The notes: generated by a model not told the origin, from the letters alone. A stretch of 64,000 nucleotides of DNA from an uncultured Clostridia bacterium (GCA_964541255.1 CAZIPL010000004.1:424-64423), one strand, 5' to 3'. Counted from the stretch's first letter, positions 12,600-52,485 are shown. Numbers and translations are program-made.

Positions 12600-12612
12600 T
12601 GCAATCGTTTGC
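12600..12612. promoter_or_regulatory. Candidate LacI-type operator TGCAATCGTTTGC (site 1)
   Basis: Exact 12-mer GCAATCGTTTGC at 12601-12612, 65 nt upstream of the sulfatase ATG. The core is 10/12 self-complementary with a central CG, like LacI-family operators. Confidence 0.55.
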
Positions 12613-12676
12613 CTAAAAGAAACACGGGGAGACTAAAATAAATGATAAAATATAATCAAAAAATCGGGGGATAAAT

Positions 12677-14170
12677 ATGAAAGCCATTACGTTGATGTAT
12701 GACAGCTTAAACAAGAAATACCTTTCGCCATACGGCGGAGAAGTGCCTACGCCGAACTTTGAAAGATTGTCGAAGAAGTGCGTTACTTTCGACAATTTCT
12801 ATTGCGGAAGTATGCCTTGTATGCCTGCAAGGCGAGAGCTTCATACGGGTAGATATAACTTTTTGATACGCGCTTGGGGACCTGTCGAACCGTTTGACGA
12901 TTCTTGCCCCGAGATACTTTCGCAAAACGGAATTTGCACGCACTTTGTTTCCGACCATTGCCATTATTGGCAGGACGGAGGACTTACCTATCACCAAAGG
13001 TTTGCGACGTTCGAGTTTATTCGTGGTCAAGAGGGGGACGAGTGGAAAGGAAGAGCGGGTAAGTACGGCGAGTTTAGCGGAAAGCGACTTGCCCGTCATC
13101 AAGATCCGATAAACAGAGAGTATACGCGAGAGGAAAACTGCTGCCACGCAAGGACGTTCGCCGCGGGAATGGAGTTTTTGGAGAAGAATTATTCCGACGA
13201 TAATTGGTATCTTCACATGGAATATTTCGATCCGCACGAGCCTTTCGATTGCCCCGAAAAATATAGAAAGATGTTCTCTGACGATGTAAATTTGAGCGAC
13301 TGGCCTTTCTATAAAACCGTTGACGGGATTGCGAACGAGAAAGAGATAAAAGAGCAGATTATTTGCTACAAAGCTTGCATTGCGATGTGCGACGATTATT
13401 TAGGCAAGCTTTTGGACTTTATGGATGAAAAAGAGCTTTGGAAGGACACGATGCTTATTGTCAACACCGACCACGGCTTTATGCTCGGCGAACACGGATA
13501 TATGGCGAAAAATTATATGCCGTGCTATAACGAGCTTACCAACATACCGTTCTTTATGTATGACCCGAGACATCCCGAAAGGGGCGGAGAGCGTGCGAGC
13601 GCATTGTCGCAGACGATAGATATTCCTGCAACGCTTCTTGATTATTTCGGCGTAGAAAAGCCAAGCTCCATGCAAGGCAAGAGCCTCGCGCCTGTTTATG
13701 AAAATGACGAAAAGATTCGCGACGCTGCGCTTTTCGGATATTTCGGCAAGCATATCAACGTCACGGACGGGAGATATGTTTATATGCGTGCGGCAAGAGA
13801 TAATTCGAAGCTTTTCGAATATACTTTGATGCCGTCAAGGCTTGCGTGGATGTTCGACAAAGAAGAGCTTAAAGACATTGATAAAGAGCTTTTTGACGGA
13901 TTTTCTTATTGCGGAAACATTCCCATGTTGAAAATTCCCGCAAACACCGAGTATGTTCCGAATATGTCGCACTTAATGTATGACGACCATATGAAATACG
14001 GCGACCTTTTGTTTGACTTAAGAAGCGATAAAGCGCAAAACGTCAATATTGTCGATAATAAAGATCTTGTCGAGCGTATGACGGAAAAAATGATAACCCT
14101 CATGCAAGAGTCCGAAGCTCCCGCAGAACAATATGAACGTATGGGCTTTGAAAATATTTCAAAACAGTAA
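12677..14170 (+). CDS. Cys-type sulfatase (alkaline-phosphatase superfamily), no signal peptide
   Basis: CMPARRELHTG fits the C-x-P-x-R-x4-TG formylglycine motif, with metal-ligand-like LMYDSL near the N-terminus. RBS GGGGGA. Terminator at 14248-14279. Confidence 0.9.
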   Translation: MKAITLMYDSLNKKYLSPYGGEVPTPNFERLSKKCVTFDNFYCGSMPCMPARRELHTGRYNFLIRAWGPVEPFDDSCPEILSQNGICTHFVSDHCHYWQDGGLTYHQRFATFEFIRGQEGDEWKGRAGKYGEFSGKRLARHQDPINREYTREENCCHARTFAAGMEFLEKNYSDDNWYLHMEYFDPHEPFDCPEKYRKMFSDDVNLSDWPFYKTVDGIANEKEIKEQIICYKACIAMCDDYLGKLLDFMDEKELWKDTMLIVNTDHGFMLGEHGYMAKNYMPCYNELTNIPFFMYDPRHPERGGERASALSQTIDIPATLLDYFGVEKPSSMQGKSLAPVYENDEKIRDAALFGYFGKHINVTDGRYVYMRAARDNSKLFEYTLMPSRLAWMFDKEELKDIDKELFDGFSYCGNIPMLKIPANTEYVPNMSHLMYDDHMKYGDLLFDLRSDKAQNVNIVDNKDLVERMTEKMITLMQESEAPAEQYERMGFENISKQ

Positions 14171-14247
14171 TAAACTCGGTTCGTCGAGGTTTATTCAAAA
14201 AATCAAGCGTATGAAAACTACGCAAAAAATATGTAACCAAAGCTTTT

Positions 14248-14279
14248 ATCCGACGTTTTTTTGACGTCGGATTTTTTTG
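14248..14279 (+). terminator. Intrinsic terminator
   Basis: ATCCGACGT-loop-ACGTCGGAT followed by T7. Confidence 0.85.
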
Positions 14280-14405
14280 TATTTGAGACGATATCGAAAG
14301 AATATGCTTCGTCTAACGCAAAGCTGTTTTTAGTGTTATTTTGCTTCGAAATTAAAGGCTTGTGTTACAGAACGACCAAACGGAATGACGAACCGCAGCA
14401 AAATA

Positions 14406-14457
14406 GGCTCCTTTTTGTTGGGGTCTGTCATTGCGTGTCGCAATGACTGAGGGATTG
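14406..14457 (+). repeat. Double-hairpin + TGAGGGATTG module (variant copy)
   Basis: GGCTCC...GGGGTC hairpin, then GTCATTGCG-TGT-CGCAATGAC (9-bp perfect stem), then TGAGGGATTG. Confidence 0.55.
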
Positions 14458-14467
14458 ACAAATCTAT

Positions 14468-14494
14468 GGCGGCAATGAGAAGCCACCGCCCTAT
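14468..14494 (+). repeat. GGCGG-N-CCGCCCTAT module
   Basis: GGCGGCAATGAGAAGCCACCGCCCTAT. A degenerate tandem relative, CCGTGACAGTGAGAAGCGACTTCCTACGG, lies at 14518-14546. Confidence 0.5.
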
Positions 14495-14682
14495 GAGAGG
14501 TAATGATTCCAAATCTTCCGTGACAGTGAGAAGCGACTTCCTACGGTAAAAGTATAAAATTTAAAAAGATTTAGTATTCCTTTTCTCATAGAATAGTATT
14601 ATATTGTCGTTTTGATTGCTTTTTACTCTGTGTTATGATAGAATAATTTTGTTGATAATAGTATTTTTAATGAGGTTTTGGT

Positions 14683-15867: not shown

Positions 15868-15962
15868 CAACAATATATTTCTATTATAAACAATATTCTC
15901 CTATAATATATATTGAGTTAACTTTATAATATAAAAATAAATATATTATTAAGGAGAAAATT

Positions 15963-17441: not shown

Positions 17442-17488
17442 TTATATAGGTAACGAGTATTTCTCATCGATTAATCTCATAACCGAGC

Positions 17489-17521
17489 AAAAAGGAACGT
17501 AAGCCCATTCGTTCCTTTTTG
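17489..17521 (+). terminator. Intrinsic terminator
   Basis: AAAGGAACG-loop-CGTTCCTTT followed by TT. Confidence 0.8.
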
Positions 17522-17708
17522 CGTATATCGAGTAGAAAACGCCGAGAGTAGTCATGATTTATTCTGTTGGGCTGCATAAGAAGCTCTAGAAATAAGTTTT
17601 TTGGCAAATTAAAAGCAACGAATTTGAATTGTTAATTTCTTTTGTTTTAAGACTTAATAAAGCTTAAAACGCATAGTAATATATCTTCGACAACTAAATG
17701 GCAAATAA

Positions 17709-17742
17709 TAAAGGGAAACTCTTCAATGAGTTTCCCTTTTCT
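17709..17742 (-). terminator. Probable terminator of the araC-yesL unit
   Basis: AAGGGAAACT / AGTTTCCCTT 10-bp stem 45 nt downstream of the yesL stop. The T-tract on the minus strand is weak. Confidence 0.55.
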
Positions 17743-17783
17743 ATTGATATTTTTAATGTCTCTAAGTAAGTATTCCCAAGAAT

Positions 17784-18425: not shown

Positions 18426-18434
18426 TTTTTCTCC

Positions 18435-19640
18435 TTAAATATAATTTTCTTCTCTGTATTGTGCGGGCGTTATTCCCGTCAAACGCTTGAATGTGTTCTG
18501 AAAATGGCTTTGCGACGAAAACGCCAAATGATAAGAAATCTCCGACAGTGATTTGTTTGTCGTTTTCAAAAGCCTTTTTGCATCTTCTATTTTAAGCTCC
18601 AATATAAAAACCGCTAAGGTTTTCCCCGTAATGTGCTTAAACTTATTGCAAAGCTGCGTTCTGTTTATGTTAAGAGTTTGCGCGACGTCTTCCGTCGTAA
18701 CTCTCATATCGATGTTCTTTTGAATAAATTCCTTGACTTGGATCGCCAATTTATTGCCTTTAAGCCCGTATTTTTCGTCGGCGACTTTTTTAGTGAAATC
18801 AAGAAGTATTTTTGACGATAAGGCATTGAGTTTGTCTAAGCTGTCGGTGCTTTCTGCCGTTTGAATGAAGTGATCGCTCATCGAATATGCCGTTTCGGGG
18901 GAAACTCCGCCGCGAATCGCGGCGCGCGAAGCAAGAACCGTCGAAACTATCGTGATGTTTTTTGTTTGTCTTAAAGAGCTGTTTGCAAGCTTGCCTATTT
19001 CGAAATTTACCGACCATCCGTTCAAAGATAAATTGGTGAGCTCGTTGACGTTTCCTTCTTCTACTAAAGAATATAGCTTTTGCTCGAATTCCCAACTATT
19101 ATGAGGTCTTGCAGTGGCCCTTGTTTTTGATTTTTTCGGCGGCGGTTGAATGTCGAGGGTTTCTGCGGTTGTCATATTATTGCCGAAATAGTCTAACGGA
19201 TCGATATTCGTGTCTTTTGTGAATAGGTAACTAAGCGTGAAAAAGATCTTGTTGAAATTATCCGAAGTAAATTTTGTCGCATATGACAAATAGTCATAAA
19301 GCGGGTCGAGATATTCTCTCGGCTCGCCTAATCTTTGAAGTATTCTGAGACACTCGGGTCTATCTATGTCGCTTGTCGGAACGGGACCTATAACGTAAGT
19401 TACTATTTCCTCCGTTGGGGATGTATACTTTGCGATTCCGTAAAAATATAAACCGTCGTCTATGACGGAGAAATTCGTTTTTGTCGAAAAGATTTTGTTT
19501 GTTATGTTTTCGGCGGTATTGAAAGGAAGAGGCGAATTCGAGATACGCTTAACGAGAGTTTCTCCTTTGAAAAGAAACACTTGCCAGTTCGAAAAGTACG
19601 AAAGCATTGTGCATATAAATATGTGTTCGTCAATCGTCAT
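18435..19640 (-). CDS. AraC-family transcriptional regulator (paralog of 61411..62592)
   Basis: C-terminal HTH pair LKIEDAKRLLKTTNKSLSEISYHLAFSSQSHFQNTFKRLTGITPAQYR. It is divergent from the ABC sugar importer operon. Confidence 0.85.
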   Translation of the reverse strand: MTIDEHIFICTMLSYFSNWQVFLFKGETLVKRISNSPLPFNTAENITNKIFSTKTNFSVIDDGLYFYGIAKYTSPTEEIVTYVIGPVPTSDIDRPECLRILQRLGEPREYLDPLYDYLSYATKFTSDNFNKIFFTLSYLFTKDTNIDPLDYFGNNMTTAETLDIQPPPKKSKTRATARPHNSWEFEQKLYSLVEEGNVNELTNLSLNGWSVNFEIGKLANSSLRQTKNITIVSTVLASRAAIRGGVSPETAYSMSDHFIQTAESTDSLDKLNALSSKILLDFTKKVADEKYGLKGNKLAIQVKEFIQKNIDMRVTTEDVAQTLNINRTQLCNKFKHITGKTLAVFILELKIEDAKRLLKTTNKSLSEISYHLAFSSQSHFQNTFKRLTGITPAQYREENYI

Positions 19641-19769
19641 TTTTTTTCCATCCTTTCAAAATCTGTAATTATTATACAATGATTGAAACAGAAATGCAAT
19701 ACAAAACGGCATTTTTGTGTTAAGTTTATTTTATTGATGAAAAAAATTTGTGATTTTGGAGGAAAAATT

Positions 19770-20903: not shown

Positions 20904-20914
20904 GGGGAACGGAT

Positions 20915-24912: not shown

Positions 24913-25082
24913 ACATATCGCCACGATAAAAACTTTTTTATGGGGCTGTCTGCGAAAAATTAAAGGCATTGACTATTGCCACGGCGATTGTGTAAAGTTA
25001 ACAAAAAATACGATCCCACCGACACGGCGTTATAGTGCCGTGTTACCCCCCCTTTGTGAAAAGGAGGTAGAGAAATAAGGAA

Positions 25083-25128
25083 GGCTCCCTTTGAAGGGAG
25101 CTGTCGCTATAAGGCGACTGAGGGATTG
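25083..25128 (+). repeat. Double-hairpin + TGAGGGATTG module (46 nt)
   Basis: GCTCCCT-TTGA-AGGGAGC, GTCGCT-ATAA-GGCGAC, TGAGGGATTG. It matches 44630-44675 at 44 of 46 positions. Confidence 0.6.
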
Positions 25129-32806: not shown

Positions 32807-33961
32807 TTATATAAGGAAGGAAAGAAATTGCGGTAAATCTCCGACAAGAGGCTTTACCCAATCGATGAACTCGTCTGTAACAAATGTCTTGTCGGGTGTC
32901 ATGAAGTGCTCGGGGAAAACCTTTTCCGTCAACATGACTTTTTCGATGGGAATGAGCTTGGTTTGCATGACATATGGTTTTGTCGAAATACGTTCAAAGC
33001 CGACCATAACTTTCGATATTCCCGAAAGCGCCGCTTTGACTGCTTCGCTTCCCGCAATGAAAGCCTCTTCGATATCGACTTTCGACGCGTATGTATAAGA
33101 ACATCTTTGAAGAAGTCCCGGTTTTTCGCTTCTTGCTTTGATTCCGAGGTTTTTCAAAATCAAATTCTGAAGATGAGCCGAAACGTCTCCGAAATATGTC
33201 GCTCTTCCGACTGTCAAAATCGGTTCGACGACGGGCTTTCCGTCAAGTCCTTTCAAACCCTCCGACGCGACAATGCAAACGCCGCCCTTTTTGCGGAATA
33301 GTCTTTCCGCATCGATAAGGAATTTTTCTTCATCAAAGGGATTTTCGGGAAGATAAAGAAGATCGGGCGCGCCGAAGCCGTCTTCTCTTGCCAAAGCTGC
33401 CGCTGCCGTAATCCAACCGACGTTTCTTCCCATGCTTTCGATTACCGAAACGTGAATGGGAAGTCCCGAGATGTCGCAAGCCGCTTCTTTGACGGAAGCT
33501 GCGATATATCTTGCCGCCGAAGCATATCCCGGGGCGTGATCGGTTTCCATAATGTCGTTGTCAATGGTTTTAGGAATTCCGACGACGACTATATCCTTGC
33601 CCGCGGTGTGTTTTGCGATGTTTCCGCAAGTATCCATAGAGCCGTTGCCGCCGTTTACCAAAACATATTTGATGTCGTGTTTAACCAATATTTCGGCGAT
33701 TTTCTCGTAATCCTCGCTTTCGAGAGGGAATCTGCTCGTGCCGATTGCGCTTCCGGGGGTTATTTTGAGCTTTTCGATGTTGCTGTCCGAAACGTTCGTA
33801 AGATCCAAAAAGTCCTCGTTTATAAGTCCTTTCGAGCCGTAACGCGCGGCAAGAATCTTGCCTTGGAAACGCTCTTTTTTAAGCTCTGACAAAACGCCTG
33901 CCAAAGAGCTGTTTATTACGCTTGTCGGCGCACCGCCGTGCATGATTAAAATATTAGACAT
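32807..33961 (-). CDS. Phosphofructokinase-family protein (PFK-A fold; phosphoryl donor and substrate uncertain)
   Basis: ATG at 33961 follows GAGGA (the track start at 33985 lacks an RBS). MHGGAPTSVINSS, NGGNGSMDT, IPKTIDNDI and MGRNVGW motifs are present. It combines Gly at the ATP-type position with Lys at the PPi-type position. Confidence 0.8.
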   Translation of the reverse strand: MSNILIMHGGAPTSVINSSLAGVLSELKKERFQGKILAARYGSKGLINEDFLDLTNVSDSNIEKLKITPGSAIGTSRFPLESEDYEKIAEILVKHDIKYVLVNGGNGSMDTCGNIAKHTAGKDIVVVGIPKTIDNDIMETDHAPGYASAARYIAASVKEAACDISGLPIHVSVIESMGRNVGWITAAAALAREDGFGAPDLLYLPENPFDEEKFLIDAERLFRKKGGVCIVASEGLKGLDGKPVVEPILTVGRATYFGDVSAHLQNLILKNLGIKARSEKPGLLQRCSYTYASKVDIEEAFIAGSEAVKAALSGISKVMVGFERISTKPYVMQTKLIPIEKVMLTEKVFPEHFMTPDKTFVTDEFIDWVKPLVGDLPQFLSFLI

Positions 33962-34027
33962 AAAAATATCCTCGCTTTTATTCACTTAAATTTTATCATA
34001 TTTTGCTTTTACTTCAATTTATTCGTA

Positions 34028-34040
34028 CGCAATCGTTTGC
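34028..34040. promoter_or_regulatory. Candidate LacI-type operator CGCAATCGTTTGC (site 2)
   Basis: Exact 12-mer at 34029-34040 in the divergent pfk-like/lacI region. It overlaps the -35 of the putative lacI promoter. Confidence 0.55.
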
Positions 34041-34065
34041 TTTATTGAAAAGGTTGTGCTAATAT
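34037..34065 (+). promoter_or_regulatory. Putative sigma-A promoter of the LacI regulator gene
   Basis: TTGCTT (34037-34042), 17 nt, TAATAT (34060-34065). The -35 overlaps operator site 2. Confidence 0.4.
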
Positions 34066-34120: not shown

Positions 34121-35101
34121 ATGTCAACGATAAAAGACGTTGCTAAGCTTGCCGAGGTTGCACCCTCGACGGTGTCGAGAGTACTTAACGGCGAGAACAA
34201 ATGTGCGACGGAAAGCGTGAAAAAGAGAATATTCGATGCGGCGGCAAAGCTCGACTACGTTCCGTCGCAAGCTGCAAAATCTCTTAAGAGAGGAAAGGAC
34301 GCGACGCCGGCAAACAGAATATCCATTCTTTATGCGAGGAATTCAAGCATAGAAGATTCGTATTTTTCCGACCTTGCCCGATTTGTCAAGCGTGAAGCGA
34401 TAAAGGCCGGGTGCTTACTTGGAGAAGAATACTTCGGCGACGAGGACGTTGCTCCGAAAAAAAGCGAGGGGCTTGTCGTTTTGGGGCGTCCGAGAAATTC
34501 TCTGGGCGGGTTTATCTCGAAATTCGGAGGGAGAGTTGTTTACGTAACGCTTAACAAAGTCGGTTCCGAGACCGATCACGTTTTGTGCGACGGAAAAGAG
34601 GCTGCAAAGCTCGCAATGAAGTACCTTTTCGACAAAGGACATAGGAAAATCGCGTATATAGGGGAGTATTCCGACGAAATAAGGTATGTCGGATATAAAG
34701 AGTTTTTGATTGAAAACAGACTTGAATTCCGCGGCGATTACGTAATAAACACATCGATGAGTATTAGAGGCGGAATGAGAGGTGCGGAGGAACTTGTTAA
34801 GCTCAGCGATCTTCCGACGGCTGTTTTTTGCGCCAACGACTTGACGGCGATTGGCGTTATCGAAAAGCTAAAAGAGCAAAAGATCAAGGTGCCCGAAAAG
34901 CTTTCCGTCATAGGAATAGACAACATTCCGAAAGCGGAGGAGATAGAACCTATGCTTACGACGGTCAGCGTTCCGACGAGGGAACTGGCGCATTTTGCCG
35001 TTATGACGCTATGCGATAAGCTAAGCGGCGGTCATACGATTAACGCGATGACGTTTTTGCCTCCCGCGCTTGTCGTTCGAGACAGCGTCAAAAAGCGTTA
35101 A
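34121..35101 (+). CDS. LacI-family transcriptional regulator
   Basis: ATG at 34121 follows GGAGGGG. N-terminal HTH IKDVAKLAEVAPSTVSRVLNG plus a periplasmic-binding-like effector domain. It is flanked on both sides by the GCAATCGTTTGC 12-mer. Confidence 0.9.
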   Translation: MSTIKDVAKLAEVAPSTVSRVLNGENKCATESVKKRIFDAAAKLDYVPSQAAKSLKRGKDATPANRISILYARNSSIEDSYFSDLARFVKREAIKAGCLLGEEYFGDEDVAPKKSEGLVVLGRPRNSLGGFISKFGGRVVYVTLNKVGSETDHVLCDGKEAAKLAMKYLFDKGHRKIAYIGEYSDEIRYVGYKEFLIENRLEFRGDYVINTSMSIRGGMRGAEELVKLSDLPTAVFCANDLTAIGVIEKLKEQKIKVPEKLSVIGIDNIPKAEEIEPMLTTVSVPTRELAHFAVMTLCDKLSGGHTINAMTFLPPALVVRDSVKKR

Positions 35102-35142: not shown

Positions 35143-35156
35143 TGCAATCGTTTGCG
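35143..35156. promoter_or_regulatory. Candidate LacI-type operator TGCAATCGTTTGCG (site 3)
   Basis: Exact 12-mer at 35144-35155. It lies between the lacI stop and its terminator hairpin, 83 nt upstream of the TIM-like gene. Confidence 0.5.
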
Positions 35157-35157
35157 T

Positions 35158-35186
35158 AACAAGCCGCGGGTCGGCTTGTTTTTTTA
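35158..35186 (+). terminator. Intrinsic terminator after lacI
   Basis: AACAAGCCG-CGGGT-CGGCTTGTT followed by T5. Confidence 0.75.
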
Positions 35187-35237: not shown

Positions 35238-36068
35238 ATGAAGTATATTTACCTTAACCTGAAGCGTTTCGACGTTCCGAAAACCGAGGGCGGCGCAAAC
35301 GACATCGGTAGCGCGAAAGAGTGGGGCAAAAAGATAGTCGAGGGTATTGCGGAAGGAATTGAAAACTATGACGACATTTCCTTTGCGGCATATTTTCCCG
35401 AGGGCTATATAATCGACGCGGCAAACGCATCTCACGGAAAGCTTGAGATCGGATGTCAGGGCGTTTATGAAAACGACGTGGAGGTCGGCGGAAATTTCGG
35501 CGCGTTCACGACGCTACGTACGGCAAAGTCGGCAAAATTCCTCGGCGCGACGACTGCGCTTATAGGACATTGCGAAGAAAGAAGAAATTTGAAGAGTATT
35601 ATATCGCTTGGCGGAGGAAATAATTTCAACGCCGTAAACGAGATATTGAATAGGGAAATAAAGCGTGCAACCGAACAGGGTATGAAAGTTTTGTATTGCA
35701 TAGGCGAAACGAGCGAGGAGCAAGATAACCGTTATGAAGTATTCAAAAACCAGCTCGAAATCGGTCTTGACGGCGTAGATCTTTCTTTCGTTACGGTCGC
35801 TTACGAGCCCGTTTGGGCAATCGGCCCCGGGAAAGTTCCGCCGGATGGCGAATATATTTCGGACGTAGTAAGATTTGTTAAGTCCGTGAAAGACGTAAAT
35901 GTCGTTTACGGCGGCGGCTTGAAAAAGGAAAACGCGCCTGAGCTTGCTAAAATCAAAGAGCTTGACGGCGGACTTATCGCCTTGACGCGTTTCGGAAAAG
36001 ATTTCGGATTCTCGGTTCCCGACTATCTCGAAATAGTAAAGACTTACAGAGACAACATCGAAAGATAA
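35238..36068 (+). CDS. Triosephosphate-isomerase-family paralog
   Basis: The TIM catalytic pattern is retained: LNLKRF (Asn/Lys), GHCEERR (His), AYEPVWAIGPG (Glu), YGGG. The C-terminal phosphate-loop region differs (GGLIALTRF). RBS GGAGGA. Confidence 0.75.
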   Translation: MKYIYLNLKRFDVPKTEGGANDIGSAKEWGKKIVEGIAEGIENYDDISFAAYFPEGYIIDAANASHGKLEIGCQGVYENDVEVGGNFGAFTTLRTAKSAKFLGATTALIGHCEERRNLKSIISLGGGNNFNAVNEILNREIKRATEQGMKVLYCIGETSEEQDNRYEVFKNQLEIGLDGVDLSFVTVAYEPVWAIGPGKVPPDGEYISDVVRFVKSVKDVNVVYGGGLKKENAPELAKIKELDGGLIALTRFGKDFGFSVPDYLEIVKTYRDNIER

Positions 36069-36080
36069 AGGAGAAAAAAT

Positions 36081-37532
36081 ATGAAATTCCAGTTAGAATA
36101 CGGCAACGGTTTTATGAATTGCGAGCTTCCCGATAACGTAGACGTTTTCGTCCCAGGAGAAACTGTCGCGGATCCTCCTCACATTCCCGAAGAAAAGCTT
36201 AAAGATGAAACTTTGAAGAGTATAAGAAACCCTATCGGTATGGAGCCTCTTTCCAAACTTGCCAAGAAAGGCAGCAAGTGCGTTATCATTTTCCCCGACA
36301 GAGTTAAGGGCGGCGAGCAGCCTACGAGCCACAGAAAAACAGCTATTCCTTTGATTCTTGAAGAGCTTTATGCGGCGGGCGTAGAAAAGAAAGATATTTT
36401 GCTTATCTGCTCCAACGGTCTTCACAGAAAAAACACCGAAGCTGAAATAAGAGGAGTCTTGGGAGACGATCTTATGAACGAGTTTTGGTATACTCACCAG
36501 ATCATCAATCATGACAGCGAAGATTACGATCACCTCGTAGATTTGGGTACGACCGAAAGAGGGGACAGGGTTTTGGTAAACAAATATGTTTACGACGCAG
36601 ACGTTGCGATACTCATCGGTCACGTTCAGGGCAATCCTTACGGCGGATATTCCGGCGGATATAAGCATTGCGCGACGGGAATAACCCATTGGAGAAGCAT
36701 AGCTACTCACCACGTTCCCGAAGTTATGCATAGAGACGACTTCGTTCCCGTATCGACTCATTCCCTTATGCGTCACAAATTCGACGAAATCGGTATGCAT
36801 ATCGAAAAATGCATGGGCAAAAAGTTCTTCTGCTGTGATGCGGTAACAGATACTAAGTCAAGACAGATAGCGATATTCAGCGGTTACGCGAAAGAAATGG
36901 AACCGCTTTCGTGGGAGGTTGCCGACAAGCGCACGTTCGTTCATTGGGCGGACAAAAAATATGACGTAATCGTCTTCGGTGCACCGCAGTTCTTCCATTA
37001 CGGCGACGGAATGGGAACGAACCCGATAATGCTTATGCAAGCGCTTTCCGCTCAAGTTATTCGCCACAAGAGAATTATGTCGGATAAGTGCGTGTTCATT
37101 TGCGCGGCTAAGTGCGACGGATATTTCCACGACGAGCTTTGGCCTTATACGAGAGAGATGTACGATATGTTCCAGAAAGATTATATGAACACTCTCCCCG
37201 ATATGAATAGATACGGCGAGTATTTCGCAACCAACGAGGAATATATAAGAAAATATCGTTATTGCAACGCTTTCCATCCCTTCCACGGCTTCTCGATGAT
37301 TTCTTGCGCGCACATCGCGGAGGAAAATACTTCGGCAATCTATATTTGCGGCGCACAAGCTCCGGGATATGCAAGAGGCATGGGACTTAAAACAAGAGCT
37401 ACGATAGAGGAAGCATTGAAAGACGCGAAGAAGAAATTCGTCGGCGAAAACCCCAACATCTTGGTTTTGCCGAGAACCTTTACCACGGCGGCGGTTCATC
37501 TTTGCATGAAAGACACCGAGGGACAGAACTAA
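36081..37532 (+). CDS. LarA-family (DUF2088, nickel-pincer-nucleotide dependent racemase/epimerase-like) protein
   Basis: NGLHRKNT (the GxHR catalytic His motif), GHVQGNPYGGYSGGYKHCATG (His plus GYSGGxK with the cofactor-tethering Lys) and the N-terminal FPDRVKGG region match LarA hallmarks as I recall them. RBS AAAGGAG. Confidence 0.8.
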   Translation: MKFQLEYGNGFMNCELPDNVDVFVPGETVADPPHIPEEKLKDETLKSIRNPIGMEPLSKLAKKGSKCVIIFPDRVKGGEQPTSHRKTAIPLILEELYAAGVEKKDILLICSNGLHRKNTEAEIRGVLGDDLMNEFWYTHQIINHDSEDYDHLVDLGTTERGDRVLVNKYVYDADVAILIGHVQGNPYGGYSGGYKHCATGITHWRSIATHHVPEVMHRDDFVPVSTHSLMRHKFDEIGMHIEKCMGKKFFCCDAVTDTKSRQIAIFSGYAKEMEPLSWEVADKRTFVHWADKKYDVIVFGAPQFFHYGDGMGTNPIMLMQALSAQVIRHKRIMSDKCVFICAAKCDGYFHDELWPYTREMYDMFQKDYMNTLPDMNRYGEYFATNEEYIRKYRYCNAFHPFHGFSMISCAHIAEENTSAIYICGAQAPGYARGMGLKTRATIEEALKDAKKKFVGENPNILVLPRTFTTAAVHLCMKDTEGQN

Positions 37533-37535
37533 TCT

Positions 37536-38399
37536 ATGATTACCATTGAAAACGAATACTTAAAAGTCGGCGCGGAAAAAGTCGCGGGCGAATTCGTCTC
37601 GATGATCGATAAAAAAAGCGGCGCGGAGTTTGTCTATCAAGGAGACGATAACGTTTGGAGAAACAAAGCGAGAAATCTTTTCCCAGTTTGCGGAAAGAGC
37701 AAAGACGACGTTATTTCCGTTGACGGAAAGGAATTTCCGATGCCTATGCACGGCTTGTCGAAAAACACCGAGTTCGAGCTTTATGAAAAGACCGAAACGA
37801 AGATGAGCTTTTTGATGACGTCAAACGACGAAACGAAAAAGCATTATCCGTTCGATTTTAAGTTTTTCATCGAATACGAGCTTTGCGGAAAAACGCTTCT
37901 TCAAAAATACAGAGTCGAAAACATCGGCGACAAAACCATGTATTTTTGCGTAGGCGGGCATACGGGCTTCAATTTCCCGATAGAGGGAAATATTTCCGAT
38001 TATGCGATCAAAGTTTGCGGCGACATCAAAGAAGAGATTTGCGAAGACGGATTTTTGACCGGGAAAATCGTTCCGTTCGAAAACGACAACGGAATAATCT
38101 CTCTTTCCGACAATACGTTCGACGGCGGTTCACGTTCGCTTTCGGGTTTTTCTGAAAGTAAGCTTGAAATATATTCGGATAAATACGGATATTATATGAC
38201 GGTCGAGTTCGACGGCTTCCCTCATGTTGTTTTGTGGAGCCAGCCTAAGAAAGTGCATTACGTTGCAATCGAGCCGTGGAAAGGACTTAACGACAGCGTT
38301 AATTCCGATCATGACTTGAAAAAGAGAAAAGAAATTGCAAGCCTTGATTCGGGGGAAACTTTTGAAGTAATTCAAAAATTCACCTGCGGAAAAAGGTAA
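37536..38399 (+). CDS. Aldose 1-epimerase-family (LacX/mutarotase-like) protein
   Basis: IENEYLKVGAEKVAGEFVSMIDKKSGAEFVYQGDDNVWRNKARNLFPVCGK...MPMHGL fits the LacX-like aldose-epimerase N-terminal pattern. Terminator with GAAA loop at 38417-38444. Confidence 0.75.
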   Translation: MITIENEYLKVGAEKVAGEFVSMIDKKSGAEFVYQGDDNVWRNKARNLFPVCGKSKDDVISVDGKEFPMPMHGLSKNTEFELYEKTETKMSFLMTSNDETKKHYPFDFKFFIEYELCGKTLLQKYRVENIGDKTMYFCVGGHTGFNFPIEGNISDYAIKVCGDIKEEICEDGFLTGKIVPFENDNGIISLSDNTFDGGSRSLSGFSESKLEIYSDKYGYYMTVEFDGFPHVVLWSQPKKVHYVAIEPWKGLNDSVNSDHDLKKRKEIASLDSGETFEVIQKFTCGKR

Positions 38400-38416: not shown

Positions 38417-38444
38417 AAAACGCTCTCGAAAGAGGGCGTTTTTA
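38417..38444 (+). terminator. Intrinsic terminator after the TIM-like/LarA-like/epimerase unit
   Basis: CGCTCTC-GAAA-GAGGGCG followed by T5. Confidence 0.75.
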
Positions 38445-41176: not shown

Positions 41177-41599
41177 TCTAAAATATAATTATGGCGGGAT
41201 CGGTGTCGTCGAAAAACTTTGACGTATATCGAATTCCGCCTTTTATTTTTAATTTGATGTGAAAATATTGTAATAATTCGTAAAGAATTGCAATACAACC
41301 GCAATACTTTACGATAAAATATAATCGGGAAGTTGTGATTTAGGTCTATATTGTTTTTAGAATATGCTTATCGAATGCATTTATAAACAAGATAATACTA
41401 TTTAATCGCTTTGCCTTATTATAAAATATACTTATTAAAACGCGGATAGACTTAGTTAACGGAAAAATCTTTATATCGCTTTTTATGAAAGAACCGAAAT
41501 ACTAAATTAAGAACATAAAAAAGTTGATTTGCAATATGTTTTTATAAAAAGTTTATTTTGGTTTGCTACTATAAAGAAAATCAAAAAGGAGAAAAAGAA

Positions 41600-44050
41600 A
41601 TGACCTTTATTTTGAAAGGCGACCTCACGAAAGAGGTTACCGCAAGAGAGAAAAAGAACGTCGATTTGTCTATGAGAGCTGCCGTTGAAGGTATGGTTCT
41701 TCTTAAAAACGACGGAGCATTGCCTATCGTCGGCAAAAAAGTCGCGCTTTTCGGAAACGGCGTCAGATTTACAATCAAAGGCGGAACGGGATCGGGTGAT
41801 ACCAACGTTCGTCACATAACGACCGTCGAAGAGGGATTCAACCGTTTGGGATTTGAAATTACGTCGAAAAAATGGCTCGACGATTTCGATACGTTCTATA
41901 ACGATTCGTATGCCGCTTACGAGAAAGAGCGTGACGATACGTTGATGAAAAATTATCACCCCGGAATGACTGTTTTCGAGATGATCGGAAAGACTCACTT
42001 TTCTTTCCCAAATTCTACCCTCATAACGAAAGATTACACCGATAACGAAACGGATTACTGCGTATATATCATTGCTCGTCAAGCTGGCGAGGGCTATGAC
42101 AGAAAGCCTGTCGAGGGAGATTGGAGCTTAGACGAAACGGAGCTTAAAAACATCGCGCTTTTAAGTAGCGCTTATAAGCACCTCACCGTCGTTATCAACG
42201 CGGGCGGATTTATCGATCTTTCGTTCCTCGATACTATAAAAGTAGACGGACTTGTCTTTATGGGACAAGGCGGCTTAGAGGGCGGCTATTCAATCGCAAG
42301 ACTTTTGTCGGGCGAAGATAACTTCAGCGGAAAGCTTTCCGATTCGTGGGTCAAGAATTATTACGACTATCCTAACTCCGAGTCGTTCTCGCACAACAAC
42401 GGCGACGTATCGCACGACGATTACGTTCAGGGAATTTATATCGGATACAGATACCTCGACACATTCAACGTCGAACCGAGATTCCCCTTCGGCTTCGGAC
42501 TTTCCTATACAAACTTTGCGATGAACGTTGTCGCATCGAGAAAGGTGGAGGATAGAATCGAGCTTGACGTTGCAGTCAAAAACGTAGGTGACGTTGCGGG
42601 TAAAGAAGTCGTCGAAGTATATTCTTCTTCGCCGAGAAAGGATTCCGAATGGCAGTCGTTGGTAGCGTTCAAGAAAACTAAACTTTTGAATGCGGGCGAA
42701 GAGCAGACTCTCACGCTTTCGTTCGCAATTGCCGATATGGCTTCTTATTACGAATGCTGCGCGGAATATAGACTCGAAAAAGGCGATTATATCGTAAGAG
42801 TAGGTAATTCCTCGAGAAACACCGAAGCTGTTTTGAAAGTTGTTGTGAAAGAAGAGATCGTTACGGAAAAATGCACGAACATTGCCGTAAGAGAAACTCC
42901 GATAAAAGAAGTAACTGCTCCCGAAAAGCATTATTGCGACAATGTCGAAAAAGTCATCGAGGTTGAAGCTTGCGATATAAATACGGTCGTTCATACGTAT
43001 GAAAAGCCCGTTGCACATCCCTCCGAGAAAGTTAAGGCTATTATCGACAAGATGTCTGTCGAAGAGCTTGCTATGCTTGCGGTTGGCGACGACGTTCAAG
43101 GCAAGAGAATCGTCAACGTATTGGGAACGAGCGGATCGACGACAAATGCGTTGTATGAAAAATACGGAATTCCCAATATCGTTATGAGCGACGGTCCTGC
43201 TGGACTTAAAGTAGTCAATATCGCGGTCAAAATCGGCGAAGACAAGGTCGGTTCGACGGTAATTCCTGCCGAGTACGATAACATTCTTTTCCGTCGAGCT
43301 ATTGGGAATAATCTCCTTAAGGAGACGGATGGCGAAGCGCATTATCTTTACGCGACGGCTTGGCCGGTCGGAATCGTTTTGGCACAGACTTGGAACGAAG
43401 ATATTATCGAAGAAGTCGGCGACGGAGTCGGACAGGAAATGGTTGATTTCGGCGTAACGAGCTGGCTCGCTCCCGGAATGAACATTCACAGAAATCCTCT
43501 TTGCGGAAGAAGCTTCGAGTATTACTCCGAAGATCCGCTTCTTTCGGGTAAGATAGCCGCTGCTATGACAAGAGGCGTTCAGTCCCATAAGGGCGCACAG
43601 GTAACGCTCAAGCATTATACCTGCAACAATCAGGAAGAAAACAGAATGGGCAGCTCCTCCAACGTAAACGAAAGAGCGCTCAGAGAAATCTATCTCAGAG
43701 GCTTCGGTATCGCCGTAAAGGAAAGCGATCCGAAATCGATTATGTCGAGCTATAACCTCATAAACGATCTCTATTCGCCCAACAACTACGACCTTCTCAA
43801 TAAGTATTTGAGAAACGAGTGTGGCTTCAACGGCTTTGTTATGACGGACTGGGGTAGTTGCGACTACGGCAGAGGCAAGGCAAGACTTTGCCCGAAAGCC
43901 GGCAACGACCTTATCATGCCGGGCAATGCAGATAATCGCAAGGATATTTTGGAAGCAGTCGAGTGCGGCGAGCTTTCAGTCGAAGATCTCAAAACCGCGG
44001 CAACGAGAGTTCTTATCGCAATCGAAGACAATGTTGCGTTTCCGCTATAA
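41600..44050 (+). CDS. Glycoside hydrolase family 3, permuted domain order (a/b-sandwich and Fn3-like first, catalytic barrel last)
   Basis: ATG at 41600 follows AAAGGAGAAAAAG. N-terminal LLKNDGALP...IKGGTGSGD and FPFGFGLSYTNF precede C-terminal GMNIHRNPLCGRSFEYYSEDP, KHYTCNNQE and VMTDWG (nucleophile region). Terminator at 44082-44111. Confidence 0.9.
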   Translation: MTFILKGDLTKEVTAREKKNVDLSMRAAVEGMVLLKNDGALPIVGKKVALFGNGVRFTIKGGTGSGDTNVRHITTVEEGFNRLGFEITSKKWLDDFDTFYNDSYAAYEKERDDTLMKNYHPGMTVFEMIGKTHFSFPNSTLITKDYTDNETDYCVYIIARQAGEGYDRKPVEGDWSLDETELKNIALLSSAYKHLTVVINAGGFIDLSFLDTIKVDGLVFMGQGGLEGGYSIARLLSGEDNFSGKLSDSWVKNYYDYPNSESFSHNNGDVSHDDYVQGIYIGYRYLDTFNVEPRFPFGFGLSYTNFAMNVVASRKVEDRIELDVAVKNVGDVAGKEVVEVYSSSPRKDSEWQSLVAFKKTKLLNAGEEQTLTLSFAIADMASYYECCAEYRLEKGDYIVRVGNSSRNTEAVLKVVVKEEIVTEKCTNIAVRETPIKEVTAPEKHYCDNVEKVIEVEACDINTVVHTYEKPVAHPSEKVKAIIDKMSVEELAMLAVGDDVQGKRIVNVLGTSGSTTNALYEKYGIPNIVMSDGPAGLKVVNIAVKIGEDKVGSTVIPAEYDNILFRRAIGNNLLKETDGEAHYLYATAWPVGIVLAQTWNEDIIEEVGDGVGQEMVDFGVTSWLAPGMNIHRNPLCGRSFEYYSEDPLLSGKIAAAMTRGVQSHKGAQVTLKHYTCNNQEENRMGSSSNVNERALREIYLRGFGIAVKESDPKSIMSSYNLINDLYSPNNYDLLNKYLRNECGFNGFVMTDWGSCDYGRGKARLCPKAGNDLIMPGNADNRKDILEAVECGELSVEDLKTAATRVLIAIEDNVAFPL

Positions 44051-44270: not shown

Positions 44271-44510
44271 TTATCTGAAGCAACCTCTTCCGTTATCAAT
44301 AAAATGCGGTCTGTCCCATATGTCTTTTTTGGGCGGTTTTTCGGGCGGCGGACAAGGCGTATAGGGATAAGGCGGAAAATTACAAGGCGGCAAAAAATAA
44401 CACGGCAGCGTTTTGTCTATATAGCACGGCGGGAAATTATTGTCGCGACTGCAAAAACAACGCTTTTCTAAATATGCGGAAATAATATATAGCTTCAAAA
44501 ACTCATTCAT
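44271..44510 (-). CDS. Hypothetical small Cys/Pro/Tyr-rich protein (79 aa)
   Basis: ATG is preceded by GGGTGA 4 nt upstream. There are 8 Cys in repeating PPCY/LPCY/PPCN/TPCP units. No homolog recognised, and coding status is unproven. Confidence 0.3.
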   Translation of the reverse strand: MNEFLKLYIISAYLEKRCFCSRDNNFPPCYIDKTLPCYFLPPCNFPPYPYTPCPPPEKPPKKDIWDRPHFIDNGRGCFR

Positions 44511-44555
44511 ACGATCACCCGATATATAATATTGCTTTATTGCGTTTTGTGTGAT

Positions 44556-44740
44556 TATAACCTATAAGAAGTAAGCTTTTGTCTTGCGATAAAACCTTTG
44601 CAAACGCTTCGCTTTGATACAAAATCAAAGGCTCCCTTTGAAGGGAGCTGTCGCCGTAAGGCGACTGAGGGATTGATATATTATAGCAATGCTTCGAAGT
44701 TTCCGCACCTTGCAAGCAATGCGTAAACTTCTTGTATTAT
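44556..44740. repeat. MITE-like intergenic repeat, copy B (185 bp) carrying a nested double-hairpin module
   Basis: Same terminal arms as copy A. The interior contains the 46-nt module at 44630-44675. Confidence 0.6.
44630..44675 (+). repeat. Double-hairpin + TGAGGGATTG module (46 nt)
   Basis: GCTCCCT-TTGA-AGGGAGC, GTCGCC-GTAA-GGCGAC (GNRA-type loop), TGAGGGATTG. Confidence 0.6.
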
Positions 44741-44843
44741 CCGTTATTGAATGTCGAGTGAAATAAGTTGAAACTAAAAACGAATAATACTTGTCGAGGC
44801 TTTTTTATTAAAAATCTCAAAATGTATGAAAGTCGGTCTTTTC

Positions 44844-44872
44844 TTGACAAGCCTTGAAAGAGGTAGTATAAT
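44844..44872 (+). promoter_or_regulatory. Consensus sigma-A promoter of the MarR gene
   Basis: TTGACA (44844-44849), exactly 17 nt, TATAAT (44867-44872). Confidence 0.7.
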
Positions 44873-44892
44873 GTTAGTAATCTAACTGTTAG
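44873..44892. promoter_or_regulatory. Palindrome GTTAGTAATCTAAC plus extra GTTAG half-site (candidate MarR operator)
   Basis: It immediately follows the -10 box and covers the expected transcription start. MarR proteins typically autoregulate through such palindromes. Confidence 0.4.
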
Positions 44893-44911
44893 ATGACGGA
44901 GTAATATAGGT

Positions 44912-45355: not shown

Positions 45356-45375
45356 TTTTTTGAATAAGAAATCAA

Positions 45376-45411: not shown

Positions 45412-45464
45412 TTTATGTTTTTTTGTAGGGGTTTGATTAAAAATCAAGTCCGCGTTTATTAGTT

Positions 45465-47900: not shown

Positions 47901-48048
47901 AGTTTTCCTCCAAATGTTTACTAAACTTAGCTTTATGCTTTTTATTTTAGCATAATATTTCGTAATAATCAAAAAAATATTGATTACAAATATCGAAAAA
48001 CCGTTACATCTTTAGTTTTTTGAGAAAAATCGCCTAATATCGTCTTGT

Positions 48049-48077
48049 TTGACATCTATTTTAATTAGTGCTAAAAT
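48049..48077 (+). promoter_or_regulatory. Putative sigma-A promoter of trkAH
   Basis: TTGACA (48049-48054), 17 nt, TAAAAT (48072-48077). Confidence 0.55.
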
Positions 48078-48155
48078 CAAGGTAATTGCGAGACTTAATA
48101 TTTTTCGAAGAATTCGTTTCGGTTTTTCGCTATTCTCGCAAAAGGAGATATATAA

Positions 48156-49511: not shown

Positions 49512-49512
49512 A

Positions 49513-50952: not shown

Positions 50953-50991
50953 GGAAAAGTTTTTGTTTGAAGCTTTGAAAAAATAAAGAGA

Positions 50992-51026
50992 AACGCACCG
51001 ATTTTTAATAATCGGCGCGTTTTTAT
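50992..51026. terminator. Terminator between convergent trkH and PGI-like genes
   Basis: ACGCACCGAT-loop-ATCGGCGCGT followed by TTTT. Confidence 0.7.
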
Positions 51027-51122
51027 ATGGGCTTATTTCGGTTTTTTATAAAGCTTTTTTGAATATTGCTTTTCTTGTTTTATCGCAAAAAGCAATGATT
51101 TATATTGTTCTTGTCGTTCGTG

Positions 51123-52376
51123 TTATCTTCCGAGAATTTTATACATATTGTTCTTATATCCCTCGACTCCCGGTTGGTCGAACGGTTCGACGGAAATAAG
51201 GGCAGAGGAGATATAAGTCGATAGCATATTGATATACATAATCTCCGCAAGAGACTCTTCGGATGGCTTTTGGCACGAGAAAATCATGACGGGGATTTCT
51301 CCGTCATAGTGCGCCTTTAATGTGCCGTCGAAAACGGCGGAGTTAATTGACGAAAACTCTTTGTCGTCAAGGTAAGAGAACCCGTCGCCAAATTCGGTAT
51401 CGGGAATGACGAAATCGTCGTCGAATCTCATATCGAGGAAAGTCTCCGACAAAAAGAGTCTGCCCTCTTGGATATATTGCCCGATCGCATGCAAGTCTTC
51501 CGAAAAGCTTGTCGTATAGGGAAGAACGGCATTTTCGTTTTTGCCCTCCGACTCGCCGTGAAGCTGCAACCACCAACGCGCGAAGTATTCGAGCGACGGC
51601 TCGAAGTAGGCGAGGTTTTCGACGAAAAAGCCTTTTTCTTGCAAAATGGCTCTTGCGACGGCATAGCGAACGGCGGGGTTTTCTTTTATCGGCATTTCTT
51701 CAAGCTCTTTTTGGCAAGAAATCGCGCTTTGAACGAATTTATCGATGTCGCACCCCGCTACCGCCATAGGTAAAAGGCTTACGCTCGTAAATGCCGAAAA
51801 TCTTCCGCCGACTTTTTGTGGAAATTCGAAAAAGCGATAACCTTGTTTTTCCGCGATAGGGTAAAGCTGCTCTTTCCCGAAGCTTCCCGTCAAAATTACG
51901 CGGCGCTTATAATCCTCTCCGTAGCGGTTTTTGAGATAGCTTCTTAAATATCTGAACGCAATCCCCGGCTCCACGGTGTGGAAGTCTTTCGCTATAATAT
52001 CGACAAAAACGCTTCTATTTTCAAGCTTTTCGAGCGTTTCTTTGATATATTTTGCCGAGAAGTTATTCCCAAGATACACTATATTGCCGTTGTTTTTATA
52101 TAGTCCCTCGATAATGCTTTGTGCGGATCTGTTGGAGCCTCCTACTCCCACAACGAGAAGTACGCCGTTTTCGCTCTTTATTTCTTCGGCAAGCTTTTTA
52201 TATTCGTTAATCTCGCTTATATTGTCGGAAACGTTTTTCCAACCCAAGCTTCCTTTAAGTCCGAGATTTCCCGAAAGGCACGAAGAAATTAAATCGACGT
52301 TTTTTTTGATTCTTTCGTCGATGTCGTCTTTCGAAACGTATTTATCAATATATCTTTCGTCGAAAACAGTGCGCAT
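51123..52376 (-). CDS. Glucose-6-phosphate-isomerase-family protein with degenerate sugar-phosphate loop
   Basis: VGVGGSNRS, VGGRFSAFTSVSLLP, WWLQLHGESEGK, SEDLHAIGQ and FDQPGVEGYK match bacterial PGI motifs. The SKSGTT(T)EP loop reads AKDFHTVEP. RBS GAGGAG. Confidence 0.8.
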   Translation of the reverse strand: MRTVFDERYIDKYVSKDDIDERIKKNVDLISSCLSGNLGLKGSLGWKNVSDNISEINEYKKLAEEIKSENGVLLVVGVGGSNRSAQSIIEGLYKNNGNIVYLGNNFSAKYIKETLEKLENRSVFVDIIAKDFHTVEPGIAFRYLRSYLKNRYGEDYKRRVILTGSFGKEQLYPIAEKQGYRFFEFPQKVGGRFSAFTSVSLLPMAVAGCDIDKFVQSAISCQKELEEMPIKENPAVRYAVARAILQEKGFFVENLAYFEPSLEYFARWWLQLHGESEGKNENAVLPYTTSFSEDLHAIGQYIQEGRLFLSETFLDMRFDDDFVIPDTEFGDGFSYLDDKEFSSINSAVFDGTLKAHYDGEIPVMIFSCQKPSEESLAEIMYINMLSTYISSALISVEPFDQPGVEGYKNNMYKILGR

Positions 52377-52403
52377 AATCGCTCCTCGAATAATGTTTAT
52401 TTT

Positions 52404-52424
52404 GGGAAATAACTGTTATTTCCC
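52404..52424. promoter_or_regulatory. Perfect 21-bp palindrome GGGAAATAAC-T-GTTATTTCCC
   Basis: 10-bp perfect arms with a 1-nt centre, 28 nt upstream of the PGI-like ATG in the divergent intergenic region. Confidence 0.35.
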
Positions 52425-52472
52425 CTTGAAAATATGATAAGATAACATCGCTCGAAAAGCAAGAATTTTTCG

Positions 52473-52485
52473 GCAAACGATTGCG
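52473..52485. promoter_or_regulatory. Candidate LacI-type operator (site 4, inverted orientation)
   Basis: GCAAACGATTGC at 52473-52484 is the reverse complement of the 12-mer. It lies in the divergent PGI-like/aldolase region. Confidence 0.55.

Follow-up and report, generated by a model that had tools for sequence, protein, structure and literature searches.

A candidate LacI-family operator shared by a sulfatase gene and divergent glycolysis-like genes in an uncultured Clostridia bacterium

The 12-mer and the genes around it

We analyzed a 64,000-nucleotide (nt) stretch of DNA from an uncultured Clostridia bacterium (GCA_964541255.1, CAZIPL010000004.1:424-64423), referred to throughout as the window, in which one 12-mer, GCAATCGTTTGC, occurs beside a sulfatase gene, a LacI-family regulator gene and genes for enzymes resembling phosphoglucose isomerase (PGI), phosphofructokinase (PFK), aldolase and triose-phosphate isomerase (TIM). 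Based on the sequence comparisons given below, we consider it highly probable that the 12-mer is the operator core of the LacI-family regulator encoded at 34121-35101 and that it defines a small regulon. The operator itself is of the ordinary LacI-family kind, and the interest of the system lies in its gene content, in the uniformity of its sites and in its strict geometry. The features concerned are listed here; promoters were predicted from sequence, and an offset is the distance from the operator edge, outward toward the target, to the first base of the -10 element.

12601-12612, plus: operator site 1, GCAATCGTTTGC, exact match upstream of the sulfatase gene
12643-12651, plus: predicted sulfatase promoter, extended -10 TGaTAAAAT, hexamer 34 nt past the operator
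12677-14170, plus: formylglycine-type sulfatase, cytoplasmic, 497 amino acids (aa), PF00884 (9.5e-34) and SGSH_C
14248-14272: sulfatase terminator
32807-33961, minus: PFK-like kinase, PF00365, passing the NF010675 cutoff (diphosphate--fructose-6-phosphate 1-phosphotransferase); start at 33961 placed from 384-aa orthologues
33990-34017, minus: predicted PFK-like promoter, TTGAAG-16-TGaTAAAAT, -10 beginning 34 nt past the operator
34029-34040, plus: operator site 2, common to the divergent PFK-like and lacI promoters
34057-34065, plus: predicted lacI extended -10, TGcTAATAT, beginning 20 nt past the operator, which covers the -35 position
34121-35101, plus: LacI-family regulator, 326 aa, PF00356 (LacI) and PF13377 (Peripla_BP_3)
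35144-35155, plus: operator site 3, 3' of the lacI coding sequence and upstream of the TIM-like operon
35158-35180, plus: lacI terminator hairpin, at the -35 position of the next promoter; conserved in related loci L001, L002 and L005
35190-35195, plus: predicted -10 of the TIM-like operon, TATAAT, beginning 35 nt past the operator; no -35, no TGn
35238-38399, plus: TIM-like/LarA-like/epimerase operon (Pfam, NCBIfam)
35238-36068, plus: TIM-like isomerase
36081-37532, plus: LarA-like nickel-pincer enzyme
37536-38399, plus: aldose 1-epimerase
about 38417-38444, plus: hairpin and T-run after the epimerase gene, read by eye
51022-50991, minus: PGI-like terminator
51123-52376, minus: PGI-like isomerase, below the PGI equivalog cutoff
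52434-52462, minus: predicted PGI-like promoter, TTGCTT-17-TATCAT, -10 beginning 34 nt past the operator; block conserved in L009
52473-52484, minus: operator site 4, at the midpoint between the PGI-like promoter and the divergent aldolase promoter
52519-52524, plus: predicted -10 of the aldolase operon, TATAAT, beginning 35 nt past the operator; identical in L009
52558-53718, plus: class II aldolase, 386 aa
53722-54534, plus: NagB-like protein, 270 aa, in the same operon as the aldolase
54759-56162, plus: MFS_2 transporter, own promoter, no operator

A direct search of the whole window returned exact copies at 12601(+), 34029(+), 35144(+) and 52473(-), which are the four positions of the original prediction, and none elsewhere. 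In dinucleotide-preserving shuffles the mean expected count was 0.02, and none of 100 shuffles reached four. On a gene map compiled from a list of open reading frames (ORFs) with Pfam and NCBIfam scans, 86% of the window is coding and all four copies are intergenic, as had been reported, the chance of this being 0.14^4, or about 4e-4. An accompanying worry, that copies inside coding regions had been missed, is answered by the same search: allowing one mismatch to GCAANCGNTTGC added only two matches, at 7957 and 37037, with about two expected by chance, and these were dismissed as further sites since they are intragenic and no more numerous than chance allows. A candidate fifth site at 12548 (CAAATCGTTTTG) was rejected as well; it has four outer mismatches and its counterpart in the related locus L015 carries a 5-nt insertion. 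None of the repeat families of the window takes in the four sites, and an Rfam scan of the spacers for structured RNA was empty.

The 12-mer has the form GCAA-w-CG-w-TTGC, of even length and with CG at positions 6-7, and 10 of its 12 positions are palindromic, in agreement with the near-palindrome centered on CG that was first described. Read more broadly, the operator extends over about 16 bp as acGCAAwCGwTTGCgt with the 12-mer as its core, and the flanks of the four copies show no relatedness past 1-4 bases. The four sites are unusually uniform for an operator set. Their center, TCGT, is conserved and non-palindromic, which a symmetric dimer leaves unexplained.

Sites 2 and 3 flank lacI, as stated in the original prediction, and the start codons of the six target genes lie 65-108 nt downstream of the sites (65 nt from site 1 to the sulfatase ATG). 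Site 2 is 92 nt upstream of lacI and, again as predicted, overlaps its -35 position. Site 3 is 43 nt past the lacI stop codon and 83 nt ahead of the TIM-like gene; the earlier placement of the sites relative to genes holds, with the refinement that site 3 comes after the lacI stop codon and immediately ahead of the terminator hairpin of that gene. No operator was found before the MFS_2 transporter gene or before a GH106-like gene (38561), both of which have their own promoters, and the MFS_2 transporter may in addition be expressed by read-through from the aldolase operon.

Conservation and operator-promoter geometry

Relatives of the LacI-family protein were taken as a graded identity series and the loci encoding them were recovered. 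In L002-L004 (92% identity), L001 (91%; a metagenome-assembled genome of an uncultured Clostridia bacterium and the one relative returned by a scan of genome contigs) and L005 (82%), the PFK-like gene remains divergent from lacI, the TIM-like and LarA-like genes follow lacI, and both lacI-flanking 12-mers are exact. L006 (53%) has the same synteny and the same 12-mer at both places, inverted. At 47% identity, L007 and L018 carry GCAAACGTTTGT after lacI and GCAAACGTTTGC before the next gene, in a cluster ordered LacI, epimerase, GFO-type oxidoreductase, SIS, NMT1-type ATP-binding cassette (ABC) transporter, NagB-like, NagA-like, aldolase and PFK. The lacI-flanking spacers are only about 60% identical, and the operator forms a conserved island in the alignments. 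The other two sites are retained in comparable fashion: site 4 appears in L009 (aldolase about 90% identical) as GAAAACGATTGC at the same place with one mismatch, and site 1 appears in L015 (sulfatase 80% identical) as GAAATCGTTTGC, with one mismatch and at the same distance to a conserved TGnTAAAAT in a spacer that is otherwise unalignable. Comparative reconstruction in relatives is therefore favorable to the predicted regulon, with the sites kept as islands in the diverged spacers of orthologous loci.

In L006 a long hairpin (2407-2464; AAAACTCCTATA ... TATAGGAGTTTT) lies ahead of the TIM-like gene, and its 3' arm holds the ribosome-binding site. This arrangement suggests control of translation or termination that the window lacks.

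The position of the operator relative to the predicted promoters is fixed. At all five catabolic promoters of the window (sulfatase, PFK-like, TIM-like, PGI-like and aldolase), the -10 begins at offset 34 or 35. The same offsets recur at the orthologous promoters in L001, L002, L005, L006, L009 and L015 and at targets of the distant relatives L007, L043, L047 and L051, amounting to 21 of 21 tabulated target promoter/operator pairs across LacI identities of 34-100%. A -10-like hexamer occurs at either of two given offsets with a probability of 0.092 in the intergenic DNA of the window; for five of five window promoters, p = 6.5e-6, or about 1e-4 to 1e-3 when the choice of offset is allowed for. 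At the lacI promoters (n = 5), an extended -10 (TGnTAATAT-like) is found at offset 20-21. Assuming that transcription starts 7 nt past the -10, the operator is centered at -51.5 or -52.5 at the catabolic promoters, where it ends 10-11 bp upstream of the -35 position, and at -37.5 or -38.5 at the lacI promoters, where it lies over the -35. Site 4 is symmetric between its two promoters, and of the two promoters at site 2 one is catabolic and the other is that of lacI. Ahead of the TIM-like and aldolase genes the -10 is a perfect TATAAT, with neither -35 nor TGn, and the L006 PFK promoter reads TTGTCA-17-TGaTATAAT. This -52/-38 geometry, as read from predicted promoters, is new in the present analysis.

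Direction of control and identity of the regulator

In the reading that we consider highly probable, one regulator, acting at four sites, would control six promoters: those of lacI, the sulfatase gene, the PFK-like gene, the TIM-like/LarA-like/epimerase operon, the PGI-like gene and the aldolase/NagB-like operon. Such a link between the sulfatase and the glycolysis-like genes, the central claim of the original prediction, is supported by conservation of the sites, by their co-variation with LacI and by gene clustering. Bound at lacI, the regulator would shut off its own gene, because the operator lies over the -35 position there. Bound at -52, it would make a defined contact with RNA polymerase or impose a phased DNA bend, since the spacing between operator and promoter is fixed.

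Within this regulon, an evenly poised proposal that we slightly favor is that the ligand-bound regulator turns on the five catabolic promoters from its position at -52 and keeps lacI itself repressed. The slight preference reflects a position invariably just upstream of the -35, which a plain steric repressor would not need, together with the precedent of CcpA. Cra shows position-dependent behavior like that of CcpA. CcpA generally activates from boxes that lie upstream of the -35 (ackA, pta, ilvB) and represses from boxes that cover the promoter (PMC3463425). Activation from -52 combined with self-repression is unusual for a local LacI-family member. The fixed position upstream of the -35 at all targets makes the simple repressor that was implicit in the original prediction questionable.

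Nearly as likely, if a little short of an even call, is a classical repressor acting through the same operator at all six promoters. Here the inducer-free protein at -52 would block contacts of the RNA polymerase alpha-subunit C-terminal domain (alpha-CTD) with upstream-promoter (UP) sequence or bend the upstream DNA wrongly, a pathway intermediate would release it, and lacI would be derepressed along with the targets. Nearly all local LacI-family regulators are repressors, most of them binding when ligand-free, with 72% autoregulated, and their sites are even palindromes with a central CG located 30-140 bp upstream of start codons (PMC4052901). Some target promoters also appear strong on paper: the PFK promoters are good or near consensus (TTGAAG-16-TGnTAAAAT in the window, TTGTCA-17-TGnTATAAT in L006) and would be constitutive if unrepressed, which fits repression better than activation. 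Upstream boxes for CcpA can repress too, as in the lev operon (PMC3463425). Repression, however, has no obvious need for an invariant spacing of 34-35 nt across LacI identities of 34-100%, leaves unexplained why the operator overlaps the core promoter at lacI and never at the tabulated targets, and sits poorly with the TIM-like and aldolase promoters, which lack both -35 and TGn.

The proposed regulon resembles the local LacI-family sugar regulons (Ravcheev et al. 2014, PMC4052901; RegPrecise-type) in its palindrome, adjacent regulator, autoregulation and sugar-catabolic targets. It differs from them in an unusual target set, which joins a sulfatase and PGI, PFK, aldolase and TIM paralogues with a LarA homologue, and in an operator fixed at about -52, theirs being scattered over or downstream of the promoter. 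The LacI protein matches no NCBIfam equivalog, its best score being to RbsR (170 bits against a cutoff of 382). Its identity to CcpA is about 28% across the aligned region, and PurR and RbsR score alike (E of about 1e-26 to 1e-27). It lacks a C-terminal extension comparable to the tetramerization helix of E. coli LacI, and from its length alone it is probably a dimer. E. coli PurR, a global repressor of nucleotide synthesis in Gammaproteobacteria, binds DNA only with ligand and recognizes the consensus ACGCAAACGTTTGCGT. That operator has nearly the same core as the present one, with partial ac/gt flanks, and ligand-dependent binding is what activation from -52 would require; PurR is nonetheless distant, though among the best structural matches (E of about 1e-26, similar to CcpA), and its center is ACGT where the present sites have TCGT.

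Assignment of the sites to the neighboring LacI protein has several observations to contend with. The close relatives contribute no independent evidence, and the search for sites covered 64 kb of the genome. The core GCAAACGTTTGC also occurs at distant LacI relatives of 30-36% identity (L043, L047, L049-56, L060), so that a paralogue elsewhere in the genome could share the sites. The sites are one to two mismatches from a degenerate CcpA box, so that CcpA might bind them as well. Finally, with regard to the fixed geometry, L051 3495 and L060 7809 (minus strand) have no -10 at offset 34-35 and were left out of the table.

An improbable alternative assigns the sites to a regulator whose gene lies beyond the window, such as a LacI paralogue with GCAAACGTTTGC specificity, and makes lacI merely one of its targets. 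The distant relatives just cited, which use the same core in other organisms, speak for it. In a survey of 80 further metagenome LacI relatives, all those of at least 47% identity carry the motif; a few subgroups at 30-36% have the perfect palindrome GCAAACGTTTGC beside PFK-like, ChrA-like, epimerase/GFO or ABC genes, and most others are without it. Two of the four sites, however, flank this lacI and are kept in five orthologue-bearing loci from at least three independent lineages, and parsimony favors the adjacent gene. The recognition helix 'STVSRV' was tried as a predictor of the motif and rejected, many LacI relatives at 36-43% identity sharing the helix without the motif.

The association of PFK-like gene, LacI gene and operator reaches gut bacteria, as it is seen in the human-gut metagenome contigs L049-L056. 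In L051 (1961-5960), a LacI protein of about 34% identity with GCAAACGTTTGC sites is encoded divergently from two ChrA-like genes (chromate/sulfate transporter family) and a 388-aa PFK-like gene.

Very unlikely, in our judgment, is a role for the sites as variant catabolite-responsive elements (cre), bound by global CcpA in place of the neighboring LacI protein. The host is a Clostridia-type Firmicute, and sites 1-3 match the degenerate consensus WTGNAANCGNWNNCW with one mismatch and site 4 with at least two, so the roughly three deviations from cre counted in the original prediction were too many. The one-mismatch variants in L009 and L015, with the half-site GAAA, come still closer to cre. 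CcpA and the LacI protein also belong to the same family, and cre (WTGNNARCGNWWWCAW; PMC3463425) shares the AAnCGnTT core and a position-dependent outcome. The outer bases of cre are nevertheless TG/CA where the present sites have GC/GC, all four sites differing from it at this outer G/C pair. Positions degenerate in cre are invariant here, and the motif is local within the 64 kb searched and tracks the neighboring regulator, flanking lacI in every orthologous locus down to 47% identity. An upstream activating position would, moreover, have CcpA turn on a pathway for an alternative sugar while glucose is present, which is hard to rationalize.

The distribution of other palindromes also argues against a generic cre. 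Homologous gene sets beside other LacI types carry perfect palindromes of their own, TACACACGTGTGTA (L015 12637; L016 5390 and 5618, 30 nt ahead of the aldolase start in L016) or TGAAATCGATTTCA (L010 5842, 6002), and these L010, L015 and L016 clusters, whose LacI proteins have other recognition helices, lack the present motif, including the homologous operon of L016. Non-orthologous LacI regulators thus appear, from these comparisons, to have been recruited repeatedly to homologous sulfatase/aldolase/SIS clusters. Within the window, the other sugar operons (GH3, GH43, ABC and major facilitator superfamily) have no copy of the motif, and AAnCGnTT boxes elsewhere in the intergenic DNA differ in their outer bases, most being TAAAACGCTTTT-like.

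A second family of intergenic CG-centered boxes was observed at 3902, 5736, 10076, 12495 and 25594. These are mostly TAAAACG(C/A)TTTT-like and precede unrelated genes, including the NMT1-ABC operon and a histidine kinase gene; they may be the cre of this organism or another LacI-type operator.

That the four copies are remnants of a repeat or mobile element, or chance matches with no regulatory role, is effectively refuted: their exact identity is unusual for binding sites, yet their flanks are unrelated, no repeat family covers them, far fewer are expected by chance, and the orthologous sites are conserved in diverged spacers at a fixed distance from the -10.

Gene products and the candidate pathway

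The sulfatase, of the formylglycine (S1) class, has the active-site motif C/S-x-P-x-R, here CMPARRELHTGR, near the N-terminus within the PF00884 domain, and it has no signal peptide. Its nearest solved relatives are distant (4UPI, 1e-30; N-acetylglucosamine-6-sulfatase 5G2V, 1e-24). No sulfatase maturase gene was seen in the window. From the terminator downstream, the sulfatase gene appears to be monocistronic. The region upstream of it (5916-12350) holds genes for an NMT1 (SsuA/TauA-type) ABC transporter, for a histidine kinase and for a LuxR-type response regulator, together with a 267-aa ORF (9071-9874) that has no Pfam hit and is a paralogue of the NagB-like gene 53722-54534 (72% over 81 nt).

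The order of ABC transporter, kinase, regulator and sulfatase genes matches that of L015 (2608-8142), and because this block precedes the sulfatase gene in both, control of the sulfatase may include a further, two-component input. In a spacer whose remainder is unalignable, a short block, TTTTGCAAA..TCG.TTT, is common to both (window 12543-12562, some 40 nt ahead of site 1; L015 9704-9727), and the window copy is followed by a hairpin, GGCTGT..ACAGCC. The block might be a binding site for the response regulator, or it might belong to the sulfatase promoter as a second element.

Among the glycolysis-like proteins, the PGI-, aldolase-, TIM-, NagB- and LarA-like members all fall below the NCBIfam equivalog cutoffs, and the PFK-like protein passes only a subfamily model for pyrophosphate-dependent PFK. 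By these scores the enzymes are divergent paralogues and not housekeeping copies. The TIM-like protein retains Asn, Lys, His and Glu as catalytic residues, along with the YGGG loop. The aldolase matches fructose-1,6-bisphosphate aldolases (3GAK, 5.6e-55) better than it does the solved SqiA enzymes (8Q57, 1.5e-32); its 6-phosphate-binding Arg is retained, Ser49 is replaced by Ala, and a 13-residue insertion sits at the loop for the C6 anion.

A link between desulfation and the glycolysis-like genes, as originally claimed, is borne out independently of the motif by gene clustering in relatives and by the NagB-like paralogue in the sulfatase cluster. In L016 and L017, an orthologue 70% identical to the sulfatase lies in a same-strand string of aldolase, PFK-like, TIM-like, LarA-like, sulfatase, NagA-like, SIS, ABC and second sulfatase genes. 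In L015, two sulfatase genes follow the NMT1-ABC/kinase/regulator block as in the window, and a string of SIS, ABC, aldolase, sulfatase and FucI/SqvD-like genes comes next.

These genes could form an Embden-Meyerhof-like route for a hexose or hexosamine bearing a sulfate or sulfonate where glucose-6-phosphate has its phosphate, with the sulfatase acting intracellularly. A sulfated or sulfonated sugar as substrate is a guess from gene content. It fits the nearest solved relatives of the sulfatase, which include 6-O-sulfatases, only distantly related; the NagB-like genes in the window and the NagA-like genes in relatives; and the SsuA/TauA-type transporters, joined in relatives by ChrA-like transporters. 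Counting against it, no sulfoquinovosidase, SqvD or sulfolactaldehyde reductase/dehydrogenase was found among the scanned window ORFs.

A more specific and speculative scheme, which we regard as unlikely in its full form, is an undescribed 'sulfate-ester glycolysis' that would occur widely in Clostridia, gut species among them, and be switched on by a LacI activator that acts from -52 and represses its own gene. In this scheme the PGI-like or NagB-like enzyme would isomerize a hexose or hexosamine carrying a sulfate or sulfonate at C6, the PFK-like enzyme would phosphorylate it at C1 and the 386-aa aldolase would split it; the sulfated three-carbon fragment would pass to the TIM-like and LarA-like enzymes and lose its sulfate in the cytoplasm. 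Literature searches returned no described pathway in which PFK, aldolase, TIM or LarA paralogues accompany a sulfatase, and none with sugar-6-sulfate intermediates.

The nearest known counterpart is the second sulfoglycolytic Embden-Meyerhof-Parnas pathway (sulfo-EMP2), with SqvD, SqiK and SqiA (PMC9594981). Both systems, from Firmicutes, have a PF00365 kinase and a PF01116 class II aldolase, in the window putatively for an analogue of glucose-6-phosphate, and both have a mutarotase-type epimerase and a local regulator. The isomerase here is instead PGI-like. SqvD (PF02952) and the GH31 sulfoquinovosidase YihQ of sulfo-EMP2 have no family counterpart among the scanned window ORFs, although PF02952 genes are present near related clusters in L012-L016. 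The window has sulfatase, TIM-like, LarA-like and NagB-like genes in addition, none of which is mentioned in a 2026 review of sulfoquinovose catabolism. The E. coli sulfoglycolysis counterpart is under CsqR/YihW, and the present regulator is LacI-type, not DeoR-type. By gene content, the window cluster is thus not a member of sulfo-EMP2.

The operator provides a testable handle on a conserved and widely distributed gene set that is undescribed in the searched literature: a cytoplasmic sulfatase with PGI-, PFK-, aldolase-, TIM-, NagB- and LarA-like paralogues, to which relatives, some of them in human-gut metagenomes (L049-L056), often add SsuA/TauA-type ABC and ChrA-like transporters. If the substrate is a sulfated or sulfonated sugar, metabolism of the sulfoglycolysis type would be extended to a new enzyme set and its intracellular use by Firmicutes shown. 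With its strict -52/-38 geometry, the system is a simple one in which to ask whether activation by a local LacI-family protein is possible.

Several other features of the window were noted. Two repeat blocks adjoin in the 44472-44911 spacer before a MarR gene and have no Rfam hit: one of 49 nt (9870-9918 and 44556-44604, 92% identical) and one of 48 nt with two hairpins, GGCTCCCTTTGAAGGGAGC and GTCGCnnTAAGGCGAC (25081-25128 and 44628-44675, 96% identical). At 62700-64000, plus-strand similarity of 71-80% to the GH3 gene 41558-44050 indicates that a second GH3 copy probably runs off the window end, and the minus-strand ORFs there, which have no Pfam hit, are probably spurious. Two AraC-type regulators, at 18435-19640 and 61411-62628, are paralogous (158-nt block, 72%). 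Downstream of the aldolase/MFS/DUF218/PLC-like genes, a gene at 57741-59597 encodes a 618-aa fusion protein, phosphomannose-isomerase-like in its N-terminal part and joined there to a ROK-family kinase or regulator, and the same fusion is present in L009.

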